DNA of 39,448 bases, taken from the IMG/VR virus record IMGVR_UViG_2585427754_000011, one strand, 5' to 3'. The position numbers and the translations under genes are program-made. The notes beneath the pieces were generated by a model. The model saw nothing but the letters and a program-made list of their open reading frames with translations, did no database searches and was not told the origin of the DNA. Shown here one piece after another: positions 1,133-29,446 of the stretch (its first letter is position 1; each line of letters starts with the position of its first letter). This stretch comes from a virus. Taxonomy: Duplodnaviria; Heunggongvirae; Uroviricota; Caudoviricetes.

Positions 1133-2464
1133 TCACTGAAGTAAAAAAACTTTTAAAGCATCTTTCACAATATTTGTTGGTTCACCAATACCGCCACCAC
1201 CTTTTAAAAAATGGTATTCACTCATTTCTGCCCATTGTCTTTTTATATTTTCCTCAGCAGGTAAAAGAGATGAGTTTTCAGATAAGTATTTGTAAACTAT
1301 TCCAAATATAGCATATTCATAATTATCTACATTATATTCACTTGTTTGATATGAAAATTTAGATAAACCAAACAATTTCATGATTGATTGAGCATCAACT
1401 TTATCTTCAAGAAAGTTGAGAGCTAACTCTCGGTTAAAAGTGTAGATTATTATCGCTAGAGTCCTGTAATAACAATATCCATAAATATATTTGTTGCTAA
1501 TTTTGTCGCCTGATAGTAGTTGGTATATTTCAACATATCTAGCAAGTGTTTCAACCTCACGTAATGATAATTTTCTACTTTCAATGAACTGTAAGAAAAT
1601 ATCTTCGCTGGCTTCTACTGCAGCGGTCAGCCTTTCAGATTGCTCACATAGCATCATCCAATGATTTTTGGAAGTTAAAGTGTCATTATAATTATCTTCC
1701 TTAAAGGTAACAGGAAGGCTGTATGTAAATTTTATAAATTTGTCAAGATAACGGTTGGAGTCTACAGAAGAGCCATAGATATGATTTATGGATGCTTTTA
1801 GTTGAGTTGTGTTTGCAATTAATAAAAAGTTAATGTTTTTTATATCAAAAACATGTTTTATATTTTCAATAATAGAAATGGCAAAACTAGGCTTACATCT
1901 GTCTAACTCATCTATAATTATTGTTAGTTTACTTTCTCCAGCTAATTTGGTTAGTACTTCTTTTAGAGCAAGAACGTTCTTTTGTGCCTCGATATGATCT
2001 TCTAACAGAGCCTCGATGGTTCCATCGATAGCTGAATTTGCAGCGTCTTTGATAACCTCTTCAAATTCCTCATTAATTTCATCCGCATTTTGTTTTAATA
2101 CCCAACCAGCACCAGCTTTGAGTACAGTCTTAAGTCCGAATCTGAGGGCTGGCAATGCCTTAGATATTAATTCCTTTTTTTCATCGCTATTATATAGAGC
2201 TGCAATTGCGGCCATTATTGTAAGTATGGGAGCATCGTTGTGATCTTCAGTAAAAGCATCTATATAAACTACTTTATGATTGGTCGAGTTTATTTCAATT
2301 AAGGATGCTAACTTTTTTGAAAACTCTGTTTTTCCAGTCCCCCAGTCCCCATCTATGACCATAGGTGAAACAGGAATATTAGACTCTAGCAAACTTATTA
2401 TTTTTTCTGCAATGGCTTTTCTTTTATATTCATCACGTATATCGAAAGTTATATCTGTGCTCAT
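1133..2464 (-). CDS. KAP-family P-loop NTPase (443 aa)
   Basis: Walker A GDWGTGKT and the KAP-type Walker B IIIDELDRC are both present. ATG start confirmed; AT-rich relative to flanking phage genes. Sits 13 nt downstream of the small ORF stop. Confidence 0.8.
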   Translation of the reverse strand: MSTDITFDIRDEYKRKAIAEKIISLLESNIPVSPMVIDGDWGTGKTEFSKKLASLIEINSTNHKVVYIDAFTEDHNDAPILTIMAAIAALYNSDEKKELISKALPALRFGLKTVLKAGAGWVLKQNADEINEEFEEVIKDAANSAIDGTIEALLEDHIEAQKNVLALKEVLTKLAGESKLTIIIDELDRCKPSFAISIIENIKHVFDIKNINFLLIANTTQLKASINHIYGSSVDSNRYLDKFIKFTYSLPVTFKEDNYNDTLTSKNHWMMLCEQSERLTAAVEASEDIFLQFIESRKLSLREVETLARYVEIYQLLSGDKISNKYIYGYCYYRTLAIIIYTFNRELALNFLEDKVDAQSIMKLFGLSKFSYQTSEYNVDNYEYAIFGIVYKYLSENSSLLPAEENIKRQWAEMSEYHFLKGGGGIGEPTNIVKDALKVFLLQ

Positions 2465-2675: not shown

Positions 2676-3245
2676 TTATCTAACATACTTAACTGTTAAG
2701 CTTATAATTTTTCCAATTATTTCAACATCTTCTATCTTGCACTCGAAGGCTCTGTTTCCACCTTCAACGAAAATTCTTCCACCGGGTAAACGAGTGATGT
2801 CGCGGATTGTTATTTCGCCATCAATACTTATTACCCATTTACCATCACGTATATCATCAAATTCTTTATCACAAATAAATTCAGAATTGTTATCTGTGAT
2901 GACAAAAGGTTTTTTAAACGTAGAGGGTAGAAATCCCTTATCAAAAATATAAAAACCGTCTTCCTGCAATGCTCCATCAGACAATAAATATTTTACTACT
3001 TCTATAGTATTTGTATTTGCTGATGCTTGCTTTGAACCATGCCCTGTTGTTAGCCAATTAAGCGAGGTACCCGTTTCAAGGGCGCACTGGATTACCCAAT
3101 CTGCCGGAAAAATATCACGCATATAACGCGTTGCCATGGTGCTCTTAGAAACACCTAAATGATCACAGAGAGCCTGACGGGTACCGAACCCGTATGCTTC
3201 AACCAAACGTTCTATGGCTTTCTTACCGCCGCTATTGAAATCCAC
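2676..3245 (-). CDS. cI: CI-like immunity repressor (phage 186 CI type)
   Basis: Resembles 186 CI as I remember it (EAYGF...HCALETG...LNWLTTGHG) with an HTH-like segment. The ORF-track start at 3332 is a GTG and would overrun the promoter region; I place the start at an internal GTG at 3245 preceded by GGAGG. Confidence 0.75.
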   Translation of the reverse strand: MDFNSGGKKAIERLVEAYGFGTRQALCDHLGVSKSTMATRYMRDIFPADWVIQCALETGTSLNWLTTGHGSKQASANTNTIEVVKYLLSDGALQEDGFYIFDKGFLPSTFKKPFVITDNNSEFICDKEFDDIRDGKWVISIDGEITIRDITRLPGGRIFVEGGNRAFECKIEDVEIIGKIISLTVKYVR

Positions 3246-3272
3246 AAATCCTCCAAAGAAATCCAAAATTCG

Positions 3273-3301
3273 TTGACAGATTCCAAAAGCGATCTTAAAG
3301 T
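3273..3301 (+). promoter_or_regulatory. Candidate pR-like early promoter
   Basis: TTGACA at 3273-3278, 17-bp spacer, TAAAGT at 3296-3301, upstream of apl; sits in the cI/apl switch region. Confidence 0.35.
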
Positions 3302-3390
3302 TGAACCAGAAGTCTTCTTTTGGAGCCTTCACTACTAATCACGACAAACAACGGCTCGCCAAAAGCCATATCTAGAAGGAATGTTGCCTT

Positions 3391-10432: not shown

Positions 10433-11383
10433 TTAAACTATACCAGCGAAAGAGGTGCTTTTTGCTGGGGCTATGGCATATGAGAATGTTATTTCATTAC
10501 GATCATCGGCATCGCGACTACGATAAAGACTACTTTCAAGTTTAACGGCCAAATAATAACCATTAATATTTTGAATAACTGCAATATCGCCAACTTCAAG
10601 CGATTCTGTATCTTCACTCTTGAAGAATGCTTCAGAATTGGCATCTGTGATTTGATTGAAATCGGTAATGCCTTTAGCAAATACTAAGGAATGGAGACTT
10701 GGCTGACGCTTGTAAATGTAGGCTTGATTACGTCCCCCAACTCCCCACTTTGTCTCAAAAAGCATTTCACCTGAGCCAACCCAATAAGAGTCATAATTTC
10801 CATTTGGCACAAATGTAACTTTGCCTGTGCTTGTGGGGGATTGGTTAGCCCCATCTGGTTGAGATAAATTGACAGGGTTGATCGGAGGCGGTTTTCGGTT
10901 AAATGGGCTAGGTCCAGCCGCTGGGCGTGGTTTCATTTTCTCACCGTGCAAATCATGGATCAGCTCTACATAACTATTCTCATAATCCACAGCATCGAAA
11001 GAAAGCCGAAGGCGCGCACCTACGAAGGTTGGAACTGGCTCAGATAATGAGTTATTAACAATTACAGGGATAACGCGATTACTATTCAATTCTCGCATTA
11101 TCTGACTGGAAATGATCATTTTCTCATAACCTACCCCCCCTGATTTTTGCATATTGGCTTTAGCTACATATGGTTCTGTACAAATGACAAGCACTCGGTC
11201 AGCGCTTGTAAGCCCTTGCTCCATGAAAAGAGTAAGATCACTTCCCAATGTAATATCCCATTGGTCTAAGATTACGTGAACTCCATTTTGTTCAAGCCGG
11301 GTCGCAAGCTTTAACACCCATGCTTTATGCTCTTCACTATCATGAGAATAAGAAATAAAAAGTTTAGGTTTAGTTAGTTCCAT
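10433..11383 (-). CDS. TIR-domain protein with unknown C-terminal domain (316 aa)
   Basis: N-terminus KLFISYSHDSEEHKAW...VLVICTEPY is TIR-like, including a candidate catalytic Glu; ~180-aa C-terminal region without recognisable motifs. ATG start; AT-rich. Confidence 0.75.
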   Translation of the reverse strand: MELTKPKLFISYSHDSEEHKAWVLKLATRLEQNGVHVILDQWDITLGSDLTLFMEQGLTSADRVLVICTEPYVAKANMQKSGGVGYEKMIISSQIMRELNSNRVIPVIVNNSLSEPVPTFVGARLRLSFDAVDYENSYVELIHDLHGEKMKPRPAAGPSPFNRKPPPINPVNLSQPDGANQSPTSTGKVTFVPNGNYDSYWVGSGEMLFETKWGVGGRNQAYIYKRQPSLHSLVFAKGITDFNQITDANSEAFFKSEDTESLEVGDIAVIQNINGYYLAVKLESSLYRSRDADDRNEITFSYAIAPAKSTSFAGIV

Positions 11384-11748
11384 AAAAATCCCATTGTTTT
11401 ATATATGCCATACGATTCATACGATGAATACTAAGTGAAATCTGTGATTTATCTCGAAACTATTAAATTATAATGAGTCTTTAATTTAAATTATTTACAA
11501 CATGCATCTGATTCTAGTTTAAGTAACCATTTCAAACGGAACCATTCTCTTGTAGGTAGTGTCCAGCAGTCGGTTTAGGTAAATTCAAAGCCAGCGTTTG
11601 CCCTTCGCTCACTGTGGACTTTCATCTTTGTAAAACCGTATGTTTCGTTTTTCAAGCGGTCATACAGATACGGATTTGCACTTCCCTTAGTAGTGCATGA
11701 CTATGCCGCATGAAATCGCATGATCGTTTGAGGATCATCTTTGCTGAG

Positions 11749-11776
11749 GCCCGCCAGAATTGGCGGGCTTTTGCTT
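11749..11776 (+). terminator. Rho-independent terminator-like hairpin
   Basis: gcccgcc-agaatt-ggcgggc followed by ttttgctt. Confidence 0.5.
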
Positions 11777-11817
11777 ATCTCATGCAGGTGCATGAAAACC
11801 ACTACATAAAGCGGGCA

Positions 11818-11836
11818 GGCGTGGCGGGGATACGAG
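11818..11836. other. Candidate cos site (cohesive-end sequence)
   Basis: ggcgtggcgggga tacgag cgcgcgctg resembles the P2/186 cos ends as I recall them (GGCGAGGCGGGGAAAGCAC / GGCGTGGCGGGGAAAGCAT); sits in a GC-richer ~350-bp segment between AT-rich cargo. Confidence 0.4.
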
Positions 11837-11944
11837 CGCGCGCTGTATGCCTGAAGTGGCTAAAATAGTATCTGTCATAGGTACAACTTAGTGTAGTATC
11901 ATCCATATAATCCATTGAAATATAATCGACTCTCATTAGAGGTG

Positions 11945-12943
11945 ATGATGAACGGAATCTGGTACGAAAACACTCATACACGCATTCCTAATTTTGAAAC
12001 AACAGTACATCAAAAGCACAAATTCGGTTACGCTTATGAAACAACAAGTCATTTTGTGCATCTGTATGGGCGTGACATGGGATTTAATGTAATATCAGTT
12101 GGGTTAACTGTTATTGAGCAACGAAGTGGAACTCTCAATGATTGGGTTCGGAGAGTATTTGGGGCTCAGAACATATCTCCTTTAGATAATGAAATTGGAC
12201 ATGTAACTAGGGGAGTGTGGCGGCCATCCTTATATTATGTCAATGATACAGAAACAGCATTAGGTATCGATGAGTTTGAAAAAAGAGCAACAGAGCAAGC
12301 TCTAAGAGTTTTGATAGAAAAACTCGATGATATTTTTCTATATGTAGAACCAAGTGCCCATGGTTTGATTTCTTACAGTCATAAATGTAGAGAGCTATTA
12401 ATTCTTGCTTGTACTGAGGTTGAAAATCAATGGGTGTCAATCATTGGTAATTCGAATTTATCTCGTTCAAATGGTCGATACTCCACAAATGATTATGTGA
12501 AATTATTAGATAAGTGTTATTTGTCTGAATATAAAATTCAATATTTGAATTATGACGGATTAAGGCATTTCAAACCTTTTGATGGGTGGAATGCAAGTAC
12601 CCCTACAACATCTTTGTCATGGTATAATGCATATAATAAAACTAAACATGATAGATCAGGAGCATTCCACTTTTCCACTTTAGAAAATGTAATGGATGCA
12701 GTTGCTGCTTGTGTTGTAATGTACTGTGTAAAATATGGCCCGTTTAGCTTATTGGAAGCCAATACGTCTCTATCAACGATCGTTAATCAAAACTTTTCAA
12801 TTTCATTAGATAATAGCAATCCAGCAAGTTATTACATTCCTGAAATTGAACTTCCACCGGATACAAGAACGGATTTATTAATTTATGATTGTTATCGAGA
12901 AAACCATAATAAAGCATGGGTCACTGATCCCCTAGTGCTCTAA
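11945..12943 (+). CDS. Hypothetical protein (~332 aa), possibly HEPN/Abi-like
   Basis: ORF-track start at 11915 is TTG; ATG at 11945 follows GAGG. A single Rx4H-like motif (RSGAFH) is the only hint of a HEPN fold. AT-rich. Confidence 0.5.
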   Translation: MMNGIWYENTHTRIPNFETTVHQKHKFGYAYETTSHFVHLYGRDMGFNVISVGLTVIEQRSGTLNDWVRRVFGAQNISPLDNEIGHVTRGVWRPSLYYVNDTETALGIDEFEKRATEQALRVLIEKLDDIFLYVEPSAHGLISYSHKCRELLILACTEVENQWVSIIGNSNLSRSNGRYSTNDYVKLLDKCYLSEYKIQYLNYDGLRHFKPFDGWNASTPTTSLSWYNAYNKTKHDRSGAFHFSTLENVMDAVAACVVMYCVKYGPFSLLEANTSLSTIVNQNFSISLDNSNPASYYIPEIELPPDTRTDLLIYDCYRENHNKAWVTDPLVL

Positions 12944-12999
12944 TTTCCTGCTAAAGGGAGCTTTTAATTATAAACGCTCCCTTCGGTTGTCGCTATTTA

Positions 13000-13626
13000 T
13001 TATATATCAATAGAGTTTTGAAATTTTAATAACTGCCATCTTGTTAATAGTGGTTTTATTGCTATGTTGTGTTGTGTATTTATTTTTAAACCTTCGAATT
13101 TCGAATATCCATTTTCCAAGGCTTCCACTGAAAAATGAATGGTTTTTGTTATCGGGTTTATAGCACAAAGATTTAGGTCATATAAAGTATGAATGTCACT
13201 TCTGAGCAATAATCCATTGCTAATATGATTGTGACTATCGTTTCGATATACATTAATGTGAGCAGCATCAAGAATATCAACAAGCTTACAGCCCGTAACC
13301 GCACAAGTAGGATTTGATTTTAATAGCTGGTCGCGAAATGTTTTTTGCCCACTTCGTTGTTTTATTTGCCGTTCTACAATTTGCCGTTGATCTTCACCCA
13401 TTAAAGTGGGGGTGTCTTTATCAGCTTCGCTGGCGTTGAGCTCCAGAATAATAGTATGTTGGGCGGTAAGCAAAGCAACAGCCCATTGATAGTTAACTTC
13501 TTGGATGGACATTTGCCCATTGTAGCGTGGAGTTTCATCTATAAGTTGTGACATTGTAATATTGGATAATTTACGGTACTGGTTGCCGCAGTATGCTATA
13601 AATTCTTTAGCTGGCTCAAAAACCAC
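13000..13626 (-). CDS. HNH endonuclease-domain protein (HNH_2-like)
   Basis: DAAHI...NGLLLRSDIHTLYD matches the HNH motif pattern. Annotated start is GTG; true start uncertain. Confidence 0.65.
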   Translation of the reverse strand: MVFEPAKEFIAYCGNQYRKLSNITMSQLIDETPRYNGQMSIQEVNYQWAVALLTAQHTIILELNASEADKDTPTLMGEDQRQIVERQIKQRSGQKTFRDQLLKSNPTCAVTGCKLVDILDAAHINVYRNDSHNHISNGLLLRSDIHTLYDLNLCAINPITKTIHFSVEALENGYSKFEGLKINTQHNIAIKPLLTRWQLLKFQNSIDI

Positions 13627-21803: not shown

Positions 21804-21936
21804 CGGTGATCTGAACGCGTTGCTGGATGAAACGGAGGCTGCCTGGGCGGTCTGTGCAGACAAAGTGGACATGATTATTGCGTGTCAGGAGCGAAACAGT
21901 GAACAAACCACAATCCCTGCGCCACGCCCTCAATAA
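21646..21936 (+). CDS. lysC: o-spanin lipoprotein (LysC/Rz1-like), embedded in and extending past lysB
   Basis: Signal peptide with lipobox LTLSGC; alternate frame overlapping the lysB 3' end; GTG start. Confidence 0.55.
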   Translation: MRTRIYAAGLILLCLLTLSGCGNAPHSPEVQLTVSGCPRVTPCRLDQAMPRTNGDLNALLDETEAAWAVCADKVDMIIACQERNSEQTTIPAPRPQ

Positions 21937-22330
21937 AGCGGTGCCTTATGTCCGCAATAACCCGGACAAACTGCATCTGTTTGTGGATAACGGTTCGCTA
22001 GTTGCTACGGGGGCCAGCTCCATGTCATGGGAGTACCGTTACACCCTGAACGTGGTGATTGAGGATTTCAGCGGCGACCAGAATCTGTTGATGGCCCCGG
22101 TTTTGCTGTGGCTGCGAGATAACCAGCCCGATGCAATCAATAACCCGGTGTTACGGGAAAAGTTATTCACCTTTGAAGTGGATATTTTGCGCAACGATGT
22201 CTGTGATATCAGCCTTAACCTGCAACTGACGGAACGTGTGCTGGTCAGCACTGACGGCACTGTGTCCAGCGTTGAAGCTGTAGCGGAACCCGATGAACCT
22301 GAAGAAGTGTGGACGGTGAAACGTGGCTGA
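21899..22330 (+). CDS. R: Tail completion protein R
   Basis: KPQSLRHAL...FVDNGS matches the P2 gpR N-terminus as recalled; GTG at 21899 after AGGAG. Confidence 0.75.
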   Translation: MNKPQSLRHALNKAVPYVRNNPDKLHLFVDNGSLVATGASSMSWEYRYTLNVVIEDFSGDQNLLMAPVLLWLRDNQPDAINNPVLREKLFTFEVDILRNDVCDISLNLQLTERVLVSTDGTVSSVEAVAEPDEPEEVWTVKRG

Positions 22331-22766
22331 ACTGCAGAAGGTGGACGACTGGCTGAGTGCTTTGCTGGCGAATCTGGAACCAGCCGCAAGAAGCCGCATG
22401 ATGCGCCAGCTGGCGCAGGAACTTCGGCGGACACAGCAGCAGAATATCAGGATGCAGCGCAACCCTGACGGCAGCAGCTATGAACCGCGACGGGTAACAG
22501 CACGCAGTAAAAAAGGCCGTATCAAACGTCAGATGTTTGCAAAGCTGCGCACCACAAAATACCTGAAAACTGCCGCCAGTGCCGATTCTGCCAGCGTGCA
22601 GTTTGAAGGCAAGGTACAGCGCATTGCCCGTGTTCATCACTACGGCCTGCGTGATCGCGTCAGTCGAAATGGACCAGAAGTGCGATATGCTGAGCGGCAG
22701 TTACTTGGCATAGATTCTAAAATAACCGCCGTTATTCGTAATAAGCTATTTGAGTTTATTAAATAA
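22323..22766 (+). CDS. S: Tail completion protein S (C-terminal tail encoded by AT-rich DNA)
   Basis: Position and size of gpS; the last ~18 codons switch abruptly to AT-rich sequence. Confidence 0.75.
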   Translation: MAELQKVDDWLSALLANLEPAARSRMMRQLAQELRRTQQQNIRMQRNPDGSSYEPRRVTARSKKGRIKRQMFAKLRTTKYLKTAASADSASVQFEGKVQRIARVHHYGLRDRVSRNGPEVRYAERQLLGIDSKITAVIRNKLFEFIK

Positions 22767-22772
22767 AAACTC

Positions 22773-24569
22773 TCAGGATTGTGATAAATTTATTAAACAT
22801 TGACAAAAATATTTAATGTCGTCACATATTTCATCTTTATTCATGTGTTCCAGAACTTCATCTCGAGTAATTGAGAAGTTATGTTTTAGTGAATTTTCGC
22901 CACTAATGAAAATTTCTTTTCCATGTGCGTCTTTTAAGGCTGCAGCTATATCTGTAGATGTTATCGAATCAGGGATAGCTAACGCATGCCTATCTCTAAA
23001 GAAGCTACGTATATCTTCTTCAGATGTCTCTGCAGCTCTTGCGATGGCTGATATATCTAGAAAGTAATTTTCAATGTGTCTGCGACGCCATTTCATGGCT
23101 AAAAAATCACTATCGCCGTGATTAGTTGATTTATCTTTAAGATCTGCTCCTACAGAATGGTCGCTATCATCATCACGATCGCGCATGCTAATGGCTTTTA
23201 AGTCAGGGATTTCATTTTTTAATTGTTTGTATAATTGAAACCTTTCTGAAGATTTTCCAGTCCAAAGCCATGTGACAATATTTTTTGGCCATGTTAGTTC
23301 TAACTTTTTAAATATTTTTTTTAGGAATCTTTCATCGCTAACACCTTCAACAATCAATAATCTTTTGTCTTCGGTAAGCTTATGGATTTTGGGGCTAAAG
23401 ATCGTGCCAATTCCACTTAATAGACCTATTTTTTCATTATCAGAACCAAGGTATTTCCCTCTGGAATTTGATAGTGCCAAAATTTTCTGTGGTTCATAAG
23501 CCCTGATTAACTCAGTAGAGTGTGTTGCCAATAGGACCTGCTTTCCTTTTTTAATTGTTATCTCTTCTAAACGTTCAGTTAGATTTTTCTGTAATTGTGT
23601 ATGTAGGTGAGCATCTGGTTCATCTAGTAGAATGACATTAAATTCTTCTGATAAGGCCAATGTATATACACTTAACCATTGAAGAAAACCGCTTCCTTCA
23701 ACCATAATATCTCTAGCATTGAAGTTTTTGTGTTTTTTAAATTGATAACCATTGACAACGCCAGCGACACATTCAATTTTTAAGTAACTATGATATTGTT
23801 CATTAAATGGAGTTACTTCAAGTTTTAAAGAAAAAAGGTCAAAGAGTGTTTTTTGTAATATTTCCCAAGGGTCTGTTTCCCTTAATAAATTAAGGTCTTT
23901 ATTGGCGATTTTGTTTCGCCCTTCTTTTAACCTCCGGCGTTTGTTTTGATTCTCTAGGTGAATATCGTAAATAGAATTTCTGATTACTCCACCAGAAAGC
24001 CCCTGACCGATTAGTCGATTCCTCATTGCTGGGCTAAGACGGCTTTCTCGGTCTGTAATACCTGCAAATGGAGGGAGATAAGCTATCTGGGGTATATTCT
24101 CATTATTTGGAGAACCATCGTCATTCTGTATTTCTTGTAAAGCAAGGTTGCTAGATGTATTTTTTATAAATAATCTATCATTTGCTAATGATAAACCGAT
24201 CTCTAAAAACTTCTCATTTTTTAAACTATCATCCCAAAAAAGCTTTATCTTTAGAGTATAACCATCATCTTCTGTTTGTTTTTGAGATTTTAAATTGGTC
24301 CATAAGTGGCTTAAAGACGGTATAAACATCGGCGTGAAATCGACAATGCCTAGTCCGACACCTTGATTTGTCGCATTTTCAGTCCAACTCACTCTTCCTT
24401 TTTCAATTTCTAAAAGAGTCTTACAGAATTGCCACGTTGCCATTGCTTGCAGTAACGATGATTTACCGGAATTGTTCCCGCCGACCAGGAGGCTTAATTC
24501 GTCATTTAATTGTATTGTTGAGTTTTTATATTTTTTAAATTTCTTAAGCTCTACTTTTTTTATGTACAT
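22773..24569 (-). CDS. OLD-family nuclease (ABC-type ATPase + Toprim), 598 aa
   Basis: Walker A GGNNSGKSS, Walker B ILLDEPDAHLH, H-loop LLATHS, then Toprim-like LLIVEGVSDE and RDRDDD. Convergent with S, sharing a terminator hairpin; strongly AT-rich. Confidence 0.75.
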   Translation of the reverse strand: MYIKKVELKKFKKYKNSTIQLNDELSLLVGGNNSGKSSLLQAMATWQFCKTLLEIEKGRVSWTENATNQGVGLGIVDFTPMFIPSLSHLWTNLKSQKQTEDDGYTLKIKLFWDDSLKNEKFLEIGLSLANDRLFIKNTSSNLALQEIQNDDGSPNNENIPQIAYLPPFAGITDRESRLSPAMRNRLIGQGLSGGVIRNSIYDIHLENQNKRRRLKEGRNKIANKDLNLLRETDPWEILQKTLFDLFSLKLEVTPFNEQYHSYLKIECVAGVVNGYQFKKHKNFNARDIMVEGSGFLQWLSVYTLALSEEFNVILLDEPDAHLHTQLQKNLTERLEEITIKKGKQVLLATHSTELIRAYEPQKILALSNSRGKYLGSDNEKIGLLSGIGTIFSPKIHKLTEDKRLLIVEGVSDERFLKKIFKKLELTWPKNIVTWLWTGKSSERFQLYKQLKNEIPDLKAISMRDRDDDSDHSVGADLKDKSTNHGDSDFLAMKWRRRHIENYFLDISAIARAAETSEEDIRSFFRDRHALAIPDSITSTDIAAALKDAHGKEIFISGENSLKHNFSITRDEVLEHMNKDEICDDIKYFCQCLINLSQS

Positions 24570-24659
24570 AGTGGAGATACCTAACCTTTATTAAACCAAA
24601 TCGCCTCATCATGAGAACTGGGACAGTTTACTATCTACTGAATTGTTTCTAAAGAGAAT

Positions 24660-24677
24660 TGTATCAAGTTCCAGACA
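24660..24677. promoter_or_regulatory. Candidate late-promoter activator site (TGT-N12-ACA) upstream of V
   Basis: TGT atcaagttccag ACA, 49-66 bp upstream of the V ATG; a little close for a canonical late promoter. Confidence 0.3.
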
Positions 24678-24725
24678 ATTACAATCCATTTTGGACACGC
24701 CCAATATGTGGCAATTTTTTAAGCT

Positions 24726-25304
24726 ATGAACGCACAATTAACCGAAATCATGCGCCTTATCACCAACCTGATCCGCACTGGGGTAGTCACCGAAGTGGAC
24801 CGGGAGAACTGGCTTTGCCGGGTGAAAACGGGCGACCTTGAAACCAACTGGATCAGCTGGCTGACGCTGCGTGCCGGGAATGCCCGCACATGGTGGCGAC
24901 CATCGGAAGGTGAACAGGTGGTGCTGCTGAGTCTGGGCGGAAATCTTGAAACCGCCTTTGCGCTGCCCGCCATCTATTCGAATCAGTTCGCACCACCGTC
25001 GACGTCGGCGGACGCCTGCGTGACAGAACATCCTGACGGTGGCTGGTTTGAATACGAACCCGCCACCGGGCGCTGGTATGTCAGAGGCATCAAATCAATG
25101 GTCATTGAGGCCGCTGACAACATCACCCTGAAAACCAGTGAGTTTGTGCTGGAGGCTGACCACACGCGTATTAACAGCGAAGTGGTGATCAATGGTGGCG
25201 TTACCCAGGGCGGCGGTGCAATGAGTTCTAACGGAATTGTGGTTGATGCACATCAGCATACTGGCGTCCTGAAAGGCGGCGACACAACCGGAGGCCCGGT
25301 ATGA
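24726..25304 (+). CDS. V: Baseplate spike protein V
   Basis: 192-aa ORF in the gpV position, first gene of the baseplate block. Confidence 0.8.
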   Translation: MNAQLTEIMRLITNLIRTGVVTEVDRENWLCRVKTGDLETNWISWLTLRAGNARTWWRPSEGEQVVLLSLGGNLETAFALPAIYSNQFAPPSTSADACVTEHPDGGWFEYEPATGRWYVRGIKSMVIEAADNITLKTSEFVLEADHTRINSEVVINGGVTQGGGAMSSNGIVVDAHQHTGVLKGGDTTGGPV

Positions 25305-26555: not shown

Positions 26556-27153
26556 TCTGCTGCCATCGGGGTCAACTTCACTGGAGCGCCGACTGGCGCA
26601 GACCTGTAGCGGGATTTCTGATCTGCAGGTGCCGCTGCGTGACTTGTGGAATCCGGCTACCTGCCCGGTCAGCTTCCTGCCTTATCTCGCCTGGGCGTTC
26701 TCTGTGGATCGCTGGGACGAAGGCTGGACAGAAAGCGTCAAGCGCCAGGTGGTGAAGGATGCTTTTTATATTCATCAGCATAAAGGGACCACCAGTGCCG
26801 TGCGGCGGGTGGTGGAGCCGTTCGGCTTTCTGATCCGCATTATTGAGTGGTGGCAGACCGGAGAGGCACCGGGCACGTTTCGTCTGGATATCGGCGTGCA
26901 GGACCAGGGCATCACTGAAGATACCTATCTGGAACTTGAGCGGCTGATAAGCGATGCCAAACCATGTAGCCGTCACATGATCGGCATGTCCATCAATCTG
27001 CAGACCAGCGGTCCGCATTGGGTGGGGGCCGCCAGCTATCTTGGCGAAGAAATCACGATCTATCCGTATATCAACGAAACAATTATTTCCGGCGGCACCG
27101 CGCATGAAGGTGGGGCGGTCCATGTTATTGACACAATGAGAGTGAATCCATGA
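26548..27153 (+). CDS. I: Baseplate protein I
   Basis: 201-aa ORF between J and the tail fibre gene. Confidence 0.75.
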   Translation: MNSLLPSGSTSLERRLAQTCSGISDLQVPLRDLWNPATCPVSFLPYLAWAFSVDRWDEGWTESVKRQVVKDAFYIHQHKGTTSAVRRVVEPFGFLIRIIEWWQTGEAPGTFRLDIGVQDQGITEDTYLELERLISDAKPCSRHMIGMSINLQTSGPHWVGAASYLGEEITIYPYINETIISGGTAHEGGAVHVIDTMRVNP

Positions 27154-28880
27154 GCACAAAATTTTATACCCTGCTGACGGATATTGGCGCGGCGAAACTT
27201 GCCAGCGCCGCCGCGCTCGGTGTGCCTTTAAAAATTACCCATATGGCGGTCGGCGATGGCGGCGGAACATTGCCAACGCCGGACGCAAAGCAGACAGCAT
27301 TGGTAAATGAGAAACGCCGGGCTGCGCTGAATATGCTCTATATCGACCCGCAGAACAGCAGCCAGATTATTGCCGAACAGGTGATCCCAGAAAACGAGGG
27401 CGGTTGGTGGATACGTGAAGTGGGCCTGTTTGATGAGTCCGGGGCATTGATTGCCGTGGGCAACTGCCCGGAAAGCTATAAGCCACAACTGGCTGAAGGC
27501 AGCGGGCGCACCCAGACCGTGCGCATGGTGCTGATTACCAGCAGTACGGACAATATCACCCTGAAAATCGACCCTGCTGTCGTGCTGGCAACCCGTCATT
27601 ATGTAGATCAACAAATAGAAATTCATGAGCAATCGCGCCGCCATCCTTCTGCGTCTTTGACAGAAAAGGGATTTGTACGTCTGTATAGCGGTGTGGAAAG
27701 CAATGATGAAACAGTCGCTGCAACGCCAAAAGCAGTGAAAATAGCGATGGATAATGCCAGCGCCAGACTGGCAAAAGACCGCAATGGTTCTGATATTCCC
27801 AATCCGGCACTGTTTGTTCAGAATCTGGGATTGAAAACGACTGTTGATAAAGCTGCATCAGCGATTCAGCCAGGAGATTATGGAATTGGCCTGGCTTATC
27901 TGAAAACCATGGGAACCAAATCGCAATTTTTTGCTTATGGTACAGCTGTCGGCTATCCAGAAGTGCCAACACATGGTGCTGGTTTCCAGGCCTGTTACAA
28001 CGACAATCGACGTGCACAGATTTATGTCGCTAATGATGGCAAGATGTACTGTCGATTCAGCATGTTATCGAAAATTGCCGATGATGAAACACCGTGGAAT
28101 CAGGTGTTCACCAGTGCACATTATCCAGAAGCATCAGTGAGTGTTAAAGGAATGGTGCAACTGGGGAACGATGTAAACAGCGTGTCAGAAAATGTTGCGG
28201 CGACATTGAAAGCGGTAAAAATTGCGATGGACAACGCCAGCGCGAGACTGGCAAAGGACCGCAATGGTGCTGATATTCCTGACCCGACTTTGTTTATTCA
28301 GAATCTGGGACTTAAACCGACGGTTGATAAGGCTGAAAGTGCTCTGCAACAGGGAGCATACGGAATCGGTAGCAATAATAACTACGAAATGGGTGAGGTT
28401 TCACAGTTTCTTGCATATTCAGGTAATGCAGATGAAGTGCCATCGAATGGTGCAGGTTTTCAGGCTGCGTATAACAAGAACAGACGCGCGCAGATTTTCA
28501 TCACCGGAGCAGGGGAAATGTATCACCGTTTCAGCGGCTCTGATACGGTTAAAGACAATACAACACTATGGCGTCGGGGTGTTTGTGAAGATGAATTTTC
28601 ATTTGGCAGCAATTATCACCGAATAACTGGCGGTGTGCTGAAGCAGTTTTTTAACAGTTATTTTTCCGGGGCAACTGGTGTGGTGAATAAAGAGTATCAG
28701 GTGAATTTTCCGACACCATTTGCCCGTCAGTGCTGGTACGTGATCCCCGTTTTCCGTTCGTCACACGGTGGGAGTGTTGAGGGTGTCGCCATTACAGCTA
28801 TTACTGCAACTGGCTTTACTCTGAGCATCACCGGAGATAACGGTGGATGGAATATTGGGTTTATTGCGGAGGGGGTCTGA
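27150..28880 (+). CDS. H: Tail fibre protein H, with an internal tandem duplication
   Basis: Conserved N-terminus MSTKFYTLLTDIGAAKLA...; two ~150-aa repeat units in the C-terminal half. Confidence 0.8.
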   Translation: MSTKFYTLLTDIGAAKLASAAALGVPLKITHMAVGDGGGTLPTPDAKQTALVNEKRRAALNMLYIDPQNSSQIIAEQVIPENEGGWWIREVGLFDESGALIAVGNCPESYKPQLAEGSGRTQTVRMVLITSSTDNITLKIDPAVVLATRHYVDQQIEIHEQSRRHPSASLTEKGFVRLYSGVESNDETVAATPKAVKIAMDNASARLAKDRNGSDIPNPALFVQNLGLKTTVDKAASAIQPGDYGIGLAYLKTMGTKSQFFAYGTAVGYPEVPTHGAGFQACYNDNRRAQIYVANDGKMYCRFSMLSKIADDETPWNQVFTSAHYPEASVSVKGMVQLGNDVNSVSENVAATLKAVKIAMDNASARLAKDRNGADIPDPTLFIQNLGLKPTVDKAESALQQGAYGIGSNNNYEMGEVSQFLAYSGNADEVPSNGAGFQAAYNKNRRAQIFITGAGEMYHRFSGSDTVKDNTTLWRRGVCEDEFSFGSNYHRITGGVLKQFFNSYFSGATGVVNKEYQVNFPTPFARQCWYVIPVFRSSHGGSVEGVAITAITATGFTLSITGDNGGWNIGFIAEGV

Positions 28881-29314
28881 TGAGTTATTTTTACAGTCCA
28901 TCAAGAAATGCATTTTATAACAGTGAACTGAAATCTGATTATTACGATGCTCTCGATGCGTGGCCGGATGACTGTATTGAGGTAAGTGATGCAGTCTATC
29001 AGGAGTTTTATCTTGGTTATCGGGAAGGGTACAAAATGGTTGCAGGCACTGATAACCAGCCATCATGGGAAGAACGTCCACCATTGACCCATGAGGAACA
29101 GGTGGAACAGGCAGAAATGATGAAACAGATGCGCATTAATGAGGCTAACAACCTGATTAATGAAAAACAATGGCCATCAAAATTACAGCTTGGCAGGCTG
29201 AACGAAATGGAGACAACCAGATTTAATGCGATGCTGGATTATCTTGAGTTACTTGAAAATATTAATGTAAGTGATGCCCCGGATATAGTCTGGCCTTTAT
29301 CACCAGAAGTCTGA
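28880..29314 (+). CDS. G: Tail fibre assembly chaperone G
   Basis: ATG overlaps the H stop (TGATG). Confidence 0.7.
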   Translation: MSYFYSPSRNAFYNSELKSDYYDALDAWPDDCIEVSDAVYQEFYLGYREGYKMVAGTDNQPSWEERPPLTHEEQVEQAEMMKQMRINEANNLINEKQWPSKLQLGRLNEMETTRFNAMLDYLELLENINVSDAPDIVWPLSPEV

Positions 29315-29328
29315 ATACATCCCCGCGT

Positions 29329-29348
29329 CTGCGGGGATTCCTGTATCC
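29329..29348 (+). terminator. Hairpin after G
   Basis: atccccgc-gtct-gcggggat. Confidence 0.45.
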
Positions 29349-29353
29349 GCCGT

Positions 29354-29371
29354 TGTGCCATTTTTCATACA
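29354..29371. promoter_or_regulatory. Late-promoter activator site (TGT-N12-ACA) upstream of FI
   Basis: TGT gccatttttcat ACA, 76-93 bp upstream of the FI ATG. Confidence 0.45.
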
Positions 29372-29446
29372 AACCACATAACGTGCATCCTGCTCGTATC
29401 AACCAGAACATAGGCAGACCCCCTCTACTACCGGAGAGACTGCCTT

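Follow-up and report, generated by a model that had tools for sequence, protein, structure and literature searches.

Single-gene defence enzymes of the OLD type are poorly understood. Close to them stand the merged PARIS proteins (AriAB), in which an AAA_15/21 ABC ATPase is followed by a Toprim nuclease in one polypeptide; they are often carried by P2/P4-type elements, their single-gene clades were reportedly noticed by Rousset in 2022 and by Burman in 2024, and to our knowledge they have not been studied mechanistically. The OLD enzymes have been divided into classes (PMC10568477; PMC12392090), namely, Class 1, with single genes such as those for P2 Old, Thermus scotoductus OLD (Ts OLD; 6P74) and Vibrio cholerae OLD (Vc OLD); Class 2, with GajA of Gabija; Class 3, the retron effectors; and Class 4, PARIS. 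Among single-gene OLD-type enzymes, anti-phage activity has been demonstrated only for P2 Old and Vc OLD (PMC12392090). In PARIS, free AriB is released from an AriA hexamer, and merged ariAB clades are documented (PMC11464382). Here we describe a gene of this superfamily in IMG/VR virus record IMGVR_UViG_2585427754_000011, a 39,448-nucleotide (nt) stretch of Caudoviricetes DNA, hereafter the window, which is also the whole of IMG/VR contig IMGVR_UViG_2778261093_000001. It holds a P2/186-like prophage in which genes for integrase, a CI-type repressor, gpA, portal and tail are present. The gene, referred to as the cargo gene (22773..24569, minus strand), lies between the tail genes S and V. Open reading frame (ORF) analysis, Pfam, PADLOC and Foldseek support its product as a single chain of 598 amino acids (aa), which joins an ABC-type ATPase with a Toprim-type nuclease and belongs to the OLD/GajA/PARIS superfamily. 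We consider it probable that this is a lysogenic-conversion ('moron') gene, which occupies the S-V slot and encodes a one-polypeptide OLD/PARIS anti-phage nuclease.

An earlier reading, made from the letters of the DNA before any database search (the sequence-only reading), had proposed a 598-aa protein with five motifs. The ORF, whose product begins with MYIKKVELKKFK, contains all of them, namely, GGNNSGKSS at residues 30-38 (Walker A; 24456-24482, minus strand), ILLDEPDAHLH at 313-323 (Walker B/D-loop; 23601-23633, minus strand), LLATHS at 346-351, which includes the H-loop His350, LLIVEGVSDE at 404-413, and RDRDDD at 463-468. The assignment of the N-terminal part, predicted to form an ABC ATPase domain at residues 1-372 (23454..24569, minus strand), is strong: its approximately 370 residues match AAA_15 (2.7e-23) and AAA_21 (3e-16), both past the Pfam cut-offs, and K36, D316, E317, D319 and H350 are invariant among 39 diverse homologues with 34-68% identity to the query. 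The ABC-ATPase motifs named by the sequence-only reading were confirmed. The secondary structure of the AlphaFold2 (AF2) model places a helical insert at about residues 193-246 of this domain. Also invariant is Met289, in the ABC signature region (MVEGSG; at about 23703-23705 of the window), where many database entries of approximately 310 aa begin. We had considered these short entries as a separate AriB-like gene, but all of them start at this very Met289, and we read them as truncated gene calls. Likewise, a 245-aa protein consisting of the C-terminal domain only, a candidate stand-alone gene, turned out to be the product of an IS66 insertion that cut a longer gene.

The Toprim-like region that had been proposed for the C-terminus also holds, less firmly than the ATPase. 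This part of the protein, residues 398-598 (22776..23378, minus strand), is composed of a Toprim core and a C-terminal helical region, and its identification as an OLD/PARIS-type Toprim nuclease follows from four independent comparisons. First, a full-family profile aligned Ts OLD over residues 306-425, across the junction between ATPase and Toprim (E 4.9e-5), and P2 Old aligned over residues 312-441, with LLIVEG paired with VLLVEG; both alignments cross the Toprim glutamate. Second, the full-length AF2 model, with a predicted local distance difference test (pLDDT) score of 80.9, found Ts OLD (6p74) as its best Foldseek match (1.7e-12), followed by three GajA structures with E-values up to 2e-10. 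Third, when the C-terminal part was modelled separately (pLDDT 90.5), places one to seven of the Foldseek ranking were all taken by AriB or OLD C-terminal regions (probability 0.69-0.98). AriB (8ux9_A) had the best E-value (probability 0.93) and the C-terminal region of Burkholderia pseudomallei OLD (Bp OLD; 6nk8) a probability of 0.98; the sole other match above 0.4 was full-length Ts OLD, at rank 9 (0.47). Fourth, the PADLOC model for AriAB, or fused PARIS, matched the whole protein (1.1e-25, 88.5 bits) and also the C-terminal piece alone (1.5e-10, residues 398-518). When the C-terminal pieces of 25 family members were compared with PADLOC, AriAB matched 18 of them, GajA models five and AriB one.

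Conservation within the family agrees with this identification. Among the 39 homologues E408, D412, S461, D464, D466, E500, Y502 and D584 are invariant, K551 is nearly so, and R496 is also conserved. These residues fall in the E408-x3-D412 motif (23331-23360), the D464-x-D466 motif (23166-23183) and the segment KWRRRHIENY with E500 (23064-23093), all on the minus strand and within residues 398-598, as are D584 and K551, the latter in the helical part. The acidic residues E-x3-D...D-x-D...E succeed one another as do the published ligands of the two-metal site in Ts OLD, namely, E377, D381, D431, D433 and S478/E480 (PMC7049728), and in AriB, namely, E26, D30, D88, E90 and E122 (PMC11464382). In the OLD superfamily such a site is made of metal A ligands (E, D, D), metal B ligands (D, S/N/E, E) and a basic residue, for which K551 and R496 would be candidates here. 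In our protein, 34-36 residues separate the DxD motif from the final acidic ligand, compared with 32-34 in AriB and 47-49 in Ts OLD.

Several results weigh against the nuclease reading and against the defence function attributed to it. The putative metal ligands were mapped by motif order and spacing rather than by structural superposition. The E-values of the C-terminal Foldseek matches are all above 1e-3, and the best score with a defence model, 88.5 bits, is low when compared with the 235-569 bits reached by true family members in the same window. The Pfam models of Toprim type stay below threshold, both DUF3226 (26.3 bits for a cut-off of 27) and OLD-like_TOPRIM, PF20469 (E 0.055; 14.5 bits for a cut-off of 23.2), while DUF4435 (PF14491) is not matched by the query at all; among the 39 family members none reaches an E-value of 0.01 with either DUF4435 or OLD-like_TOPRIM. 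A hidden Markov model (HMM) built from 25 C-terminal domains gave only spurious matches among PDB sequences, and a scan of the locus for promoters and terminators gave nothing above chance and nothing properly placed. Other searches with the C-terminal domain were also fruitless: phmmer with its 219 aa found no PDB sequence even at E 10; a profile of its alignment, compared with a set of 5.8 billion proteins, retrieved fragments of the family but no bridge to DUF4435 or OLD-like_TOPRIM; and its model, compared with BFVD by Foldseek, gave just weak generic Toprim matches, a DNA primase and an RloB-like protein.

If the protein is assigned to the known classes, it is a Class 1 OLD nuclease by genetic context, since it stands alone, with only S and V adjacent and no conserved neighbour in other contexts, and merged PARIS is its closest relative by sequence. 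The latter raises the possibility, which we hold as tentative, that it is a true merged PARIS protein, whose ATPase would detect anti-restriction proteins, Ocr for instance, and whose Toprim domain would cleave a host tRNA, of the tRNA-Lys type, leading to translation arrest. The shared architecture, the rank of AriAB as top PADLOC model for both the whole protein and its C-terminal piece, the best C-terminal Foldseek E-value for AriB, the AriB-like ligand spacing and the existence of merged ariAB clades all speak in favour of this. However, the AriAB model has 694 positions, for which 598 aa and 88.5 bits are a poor fit; the lack of DUF4435, the AriB family, extends to all 39 members; the template modelling (TM) scores to AriB are just 0.20-0.27, compared with 0.42-0.49 to Class 2 OLD C-terminal regions; and a covalent fusion cannot release free AriB.

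The comparison with Class 1 is similarly divided. Ts OLD is the top match of the full-length model, aligns across the domain junction and shares the E-x3-D...DxD...E pattern of ligands, but a helical region of approximately 100 residues, which the AF2 model places past the Toprim core, is absent from Ts OLD (PMC7049728), and our protein remains below threshold for the Pfam family OLD-like_TOPRIM. It is with the C-terminal regions of Class 2 enzymes, namely, those of B. pseudomallei (6NK8), Xanthomonas campestris (6NJV) and Bacillus cereus GajA, that the highest TM-scores were obtained (0.42-0.49, probability 0.92-0.98; 0.45-0.49 for Bp OLD), and in both cases a Toprim core is combined with a helical domain. 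In addition, the lysine of the helical part, K551, could act as K562 does in Bp OLD. Taken literally, these resemblances would make the protein a Gabija-type GajA whose helicase is encoded elsewhere in the genome, and many PADLOC GajA models do match it (1e-15 to 5e-23), with GajA structures at ranks 2-4 of the full-length Foldseek search. Nevertheless, most of these model matches are limited to the ATPase motifs, only the five C-terminal pieces already mentioned are touched by GajA models, and a UvrD-like, GajB-type helicase gene is adjacent neither here nor in any of ten other contexts, as the sequence-only reading had anticipated when it described a single gene without helicase or partner. 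We therefore regard a GajA with a distant helicase as most improbable. The features of Class 3 were not present either, namely, a reverse transcriptase and a non-coding RNA next to the gene, where only S and V were found; retron models are weak, with 37.9 bits for the NCBIfam Eco8 effector, whose cut-off is 250.

Overall fold similarity thus favours OLD C-terminal regions, and local sequence and ligand spacing favour AriB. A further reading, rather doubtful and slightly more so than that of a true merged PARIS protein, is that the family forms a separate unclassified lineage of the OLD superfamily. Its single chain would combine a Toprim core resembling that of PARIS with a helical C-terminal region resembling that of Class 2, and its C-terminal domain would be dark to Pfam. 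Since sensor and effector would be covalently tethered in such a lineage, the AriB-release mechanism would be impossible and activation in cis would be required. If this were true, the lineage could reveal the gating and the substrates of fused ATPase-Toprim defence enzymes.

The sequence-only reading had also offered a relocated old-like gene, which would imply a P2 old orthologue, with lambda exclusion and killing of recBC hosts. The two proteins share domain order and size (586 aa for P2 Old), both are AT-rich cargo of P2-type phages, and P2 Old was aligned over the segment from Walker B to the Toprim glutamate. However, this alignment amounts to 28% identity over 144 of 598 residues (E 8e-7; hhalign probability 77% over 127 columns), the C-terminal halves fail to align, and a tblastn search with the cargo protein against 50,697 phage records, P2 included, gave no match at 1e-5. 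Moreover, P2 old occupies the slot between gpA and portal, whose counterpart in this prophage is filled with different cargo. Together with the sub-threshold score for OLD-like_TOPRIM, these results make orthology with P2 old very unlikely, and the claim was abandoned. Rather, we view the protein as a divergent, uncharacterised member of the OLD/PARIS superfamily in a known hotspot, a reasonable defence candidate and not a surprising find.

The distribution of the family bears on its function. The C-terminal domain family is small: from 1.84 billion proteins it is represented by 132 members after clustering at 50%, and those of full length all share one fused architecture of approximately 590 aa. 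Copies with 99-100% identity are present in E. coli, Klebsiella pneumoniae and Cronobacter, and in the Klebsiella case the order R-S-cargo-V-W is the same as here. Homologues with 79-81% identity occupy the S-V slot of P2-like phages whose S and V are just 51-87% identical. Others are found intact in decayed prophages, namely, in Enterobacter roggenkampii (82%; L012:5354-8315), beside S, V and portal fragments, and in Leclercia (84%; L020:5812-6079), beside fragments of S. At the E. roggenkampii locus a SEFIR/TIR gene adjoins the homologue. Beyond the S-V slot, homologues lie in the cI-int slot of a P2/186-like prophage of Mixta calida (68%), at the edge of a conjugative element (ICE) of Pantoea ananatis, at the end of another prophage in Burkholderia multivorans, and in a small chromosomal island of Pseudomonas chlororaphis. 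No neighbour gene is common to the contexts in Pseudomonas, Mixta, Enterobacter, Burkholderia, Pantoea, Leclercia and Klebsiella. Against the 79-84% homologues the proportion of non-synonymous differences (pN) is 0.11-0.15, while that of synonymous differences (pS) is saturated at approximately 0.8, which indicates strong purifying selection on the protein, decayed remnants included. The GC content of the homologues is 0.47 in Pseudomonas (L005) and 0.52 in Burkholderia (L015), and 0.35-0.36 in the enterobacterial copies; if the GC of the former two hosts is higher, as we assume, the family would be AT-shifted relative to its host everywhere.

The defence reading draws on the architecture, the conservation of catalytic residues, the solitary occurrence on mobile elements, the retention under selection, and the defence cargo of sister prophages in the same slot, which is described below. 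The competing possibility is a gene that serves the prophage itself, for example through a nuclease for addiction or stabilisation or through an accessory function in recombination or replication. There are OLD-family ATPases with other roles, such as archaeal Cran1, reportedly in cell-cycle progression (PMC12796447), and the convergence with late genes would permit antisense silencing during lytic growth, which fits a lysogen-specific function of whatever kind. Against this stand the absence of the gene from more than 99% of the related E. coli prophages, so that it must be dispensable for the phage; its intact state in decayed prophages, an ICE and chromosomal islands, which fits a benefit to the host; and the known defence proteins among the sister alleles of the slot. 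A non-defence role is therefore unlikely, and we retain the anti-phage nuclease as the preferred reading.

The position of the gene had been described as atypical for cargo and possibly new, and this has to be corrected. In the P2 reference genome the S-V interval already contains a nonessential minus-strand gene, orf30, after which comes the pV activator site. Of 5426 complete E. coli genomes, 1052 have the flanks of our locus, and only five of these carry the cargo gene; thus, the comparison of S-V intervals that had been proposed places this gene in a small minority of related prophages. The interval itself is often filled. In an evenly spaced selection of 55 loci from related E. coli P2-like prophages that span both flanks, 26 intervals were empty and 29 occupied, the occupants being TIR, Septu-like AAA+HNH, DUF6216 (also in BL21), FRG, DUF2971, Sll1717 P-loop, DUF262, PcfJ, SIR2, AIPR and hypothetical proteins. 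The presence of TIR, Septu, SIR2, AIPR and DUF262 cargo in the same slot of sister prophages favours the defence reading. Like the cargo gene, P2 orf30 and the Septu allele are on the minus strand, convergent with S, and an AT-rich, nonessential character is common to the S-V alleles; unlike it, they encode unrelated proteins, and orf30 has no Pfam family.

P2 orf30 and the published hotspot screens, which centred on other slots, together show that the S-V slot, although familiar for a long time, has hardly been exploited. Rousset et al. (2022) analysed only the slot between gpA and portal, and the iLund4u preprint highlighted old/tin, Z/fun and a CI-proximal hotspot. A hotspot 'downstream of GpL', which accounts for 16% of P2 defence systems (PMC13586616), probably covers the S-V slot. 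Filled in roughly one of two P2-like prophages in the E. coli sample, and outside the coverage of the main hotspot screens, the S-V (orf30) slot could be mined in the same way as the gpA-portal and psu-int hotspots.

The immediate surroundings of the cargo gene are well defined. On the left, gpR (21878-22330; PF06891, 1.2e-46) is followed by the tail completion gene S (22323..22766, plus strand; gpS, 147 aa; PF05069, 1.8e-39), and on the right lies the baseplate spike gene V (24726..25304, plus strand; gpV; PF04717, 5e-18, with Apex motif), which is the right-hand conserved flank. The genes S and cargo are convergent, with the stop codon of S at 22764-22766 and that of the cargo gene 6 nt away, and the start of the cargo gene is separated from that of V by 156 nt, which is the arrangement that the sequence-only reading had described. 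S and V adjoin the cargo gene directly, and a second cargo gene in the S-V interval is absent. As that reading had also stated, the DNA is strongly AT-rich: the GC content is 0.347 in the cargo ORF and 0.359 in the 156-nt spacer, as opposed to 0.568 in V and about 56% in the flanks, and in sliding windows it is 0.32-0.40 over the cargo region and 0.52-0.62 outside. The last 18 codons of S, with the stop codon, are also AT-rich, with a GC of 0.246 compared with 0.563 for codons 1-129.

What is exchanged between prophages is larger than the cargo gene. Judged by where similarity to other alleles stops and restarts, an AT-rich exchangeable cassette (22700..24720) comprises the S tail, the cargo gene and the spacer with the pV control region. 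On the S side, the DNA remains approximately 97% identical to the empty allele until about 22683, and the 30-nt blocks that come next have identities of 63%, 40% and 29% in turn. At the protein level we compared this S with four others, from the empty, TIR and Septu alleles and from P2. The five are identical or nearly so through ...RYAER(R/Q)LLG, after which the alleles diverge into tails of their own, 18-21 residues long and of similar character. On the V side, similarity to the empty, TIR and Septu alleles restarts only about 10 nt before the ATG of V, and thus the pV control region belongs to the cassette. The sequence-only reading had placed the insertion junction inside the 3' end of S, and this agrees with the loss of similarity within its last 18 codons or so; the idea that the insertion had thereby created a chimeric C-terminus must be discarded, since every allele, the empty one included, has its own full-length tail. 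The S tail (codons 130-147; 22710-22766, plus strand) is therefore a normal, allele-specific part of the exchangeable cassette and not damage from this insertion. Neither direct nor inverted repeats were found flanking the cassette, which disfavours transposition and favours recombinational exchange; an insertion of transposon type was rejected for this reason. Screens that delimit hotspots by the ends of conserved genes will misplace the left junction, since this boundary of the hotspot is internal to a tail gene that is essential.

The 156-nt divergent control region (24570..24725), between the starts of cargo gene and V, should contain both a promoter for the cargo gene on the minus strand and the late promoter of V on the plus strand. 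A TGT-N12-ACA dyad at 24660-24677 (plus strand) has the same position as the annotated activator site of P2 pV and is kept at the equivalent place in three of four compared alleles; this pattern occurs 10 times in the whole window, where 10.5 matches are expected by chance, so that it is by its position and its presence in other alleles that the dyad is a candidate element of the V late promoter. No sigma-70 match of at least 9/12 was found in the spacer. In the interval of the convergent stop codons (22764-22775) there is no terminator-like hairpin, and P2 has an annotated terminator there. With S and cargo gene convergent and no terminator between them, late transcription from the S operon would continue into the cargo gene in antisense orientation, and it is tempting to speculate that such read-through could silence it during the lytic growth of the phage itself.

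Based on these results and on analogy with P2 Old, GajA and AriA, the following mechanism can be envisaged for the anti-phage nuclease. In the lysogen, the gene would be transcribed from its own promoter in the 156-nt spacer. The ABC ATPase, with its helical insert, would dimerise or oligomerise, and would sense an infection cue and gate the response to it. ATP binding or hydrolysis would then license the two-metal site of the C-terminal Toprim domain, with E408, D464 and D466 as proposed ligands of metal A and D412 and E500 of metal B, and with K551 or the WRRR patch providing positive charge. Cleavage of a nucleic acid would finally block the replication of the competing phage or abort the infection. 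We place nicking or degradation of DNA, as by the OLD enzymes of Classes 1 and 2, slightly ahead of tRNA cleavage as by AriB, and consider both possible. The cassette itself probably spreads among P2-like phages by recombination with one end-point in the 3' end of S and the other shortly ahead of the V start codon, whereby each allele would bring its own S tail and pV control region. Being compact, well conserved and clonable, and intermediate between OLD and merged PARIS in sequence and fold, the family is a convenient test case for the choice between DNA and tRNA as substrate and for nuclease gating in cis.

At least two other cargo slots of this prophage hold defence-type genes, which again favours the defence reading. 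First, between the integrase (1-1131) and the CI repressor (2676-3332), an AT-rich gene (1133-2464, minus strand; GC 0.31-0.35) encodes a KAP-family P-loop NTPase that matches the PADLOC candidate system PDC-S20 with 569 bits; it is in this same slot that the Mixta calida prophage has its OLD-like homologue. Second, the gpA-portal hotspot (10433-13626), the old/tin position of P2, contains a bSEFIR/TIR protein (10433-11383, minus strand; PADLOC bSEFIR, 235 bits), an ORF of 342 aa (11915-12943, plus strand), for which neither Pfam nor PADLOC gave a match, and an HNH_2 protein (13000-13626, minus strand). Elsewhere in the window, GC decreases to 0.44-0.47 at 27600-29400, which covers the distal half of a 576-aa tail-fibre gene (27150-28880) and slightly beyond; a mosaic region of receptor-binding and assembly genes is usual at such a place in P2-like phages.

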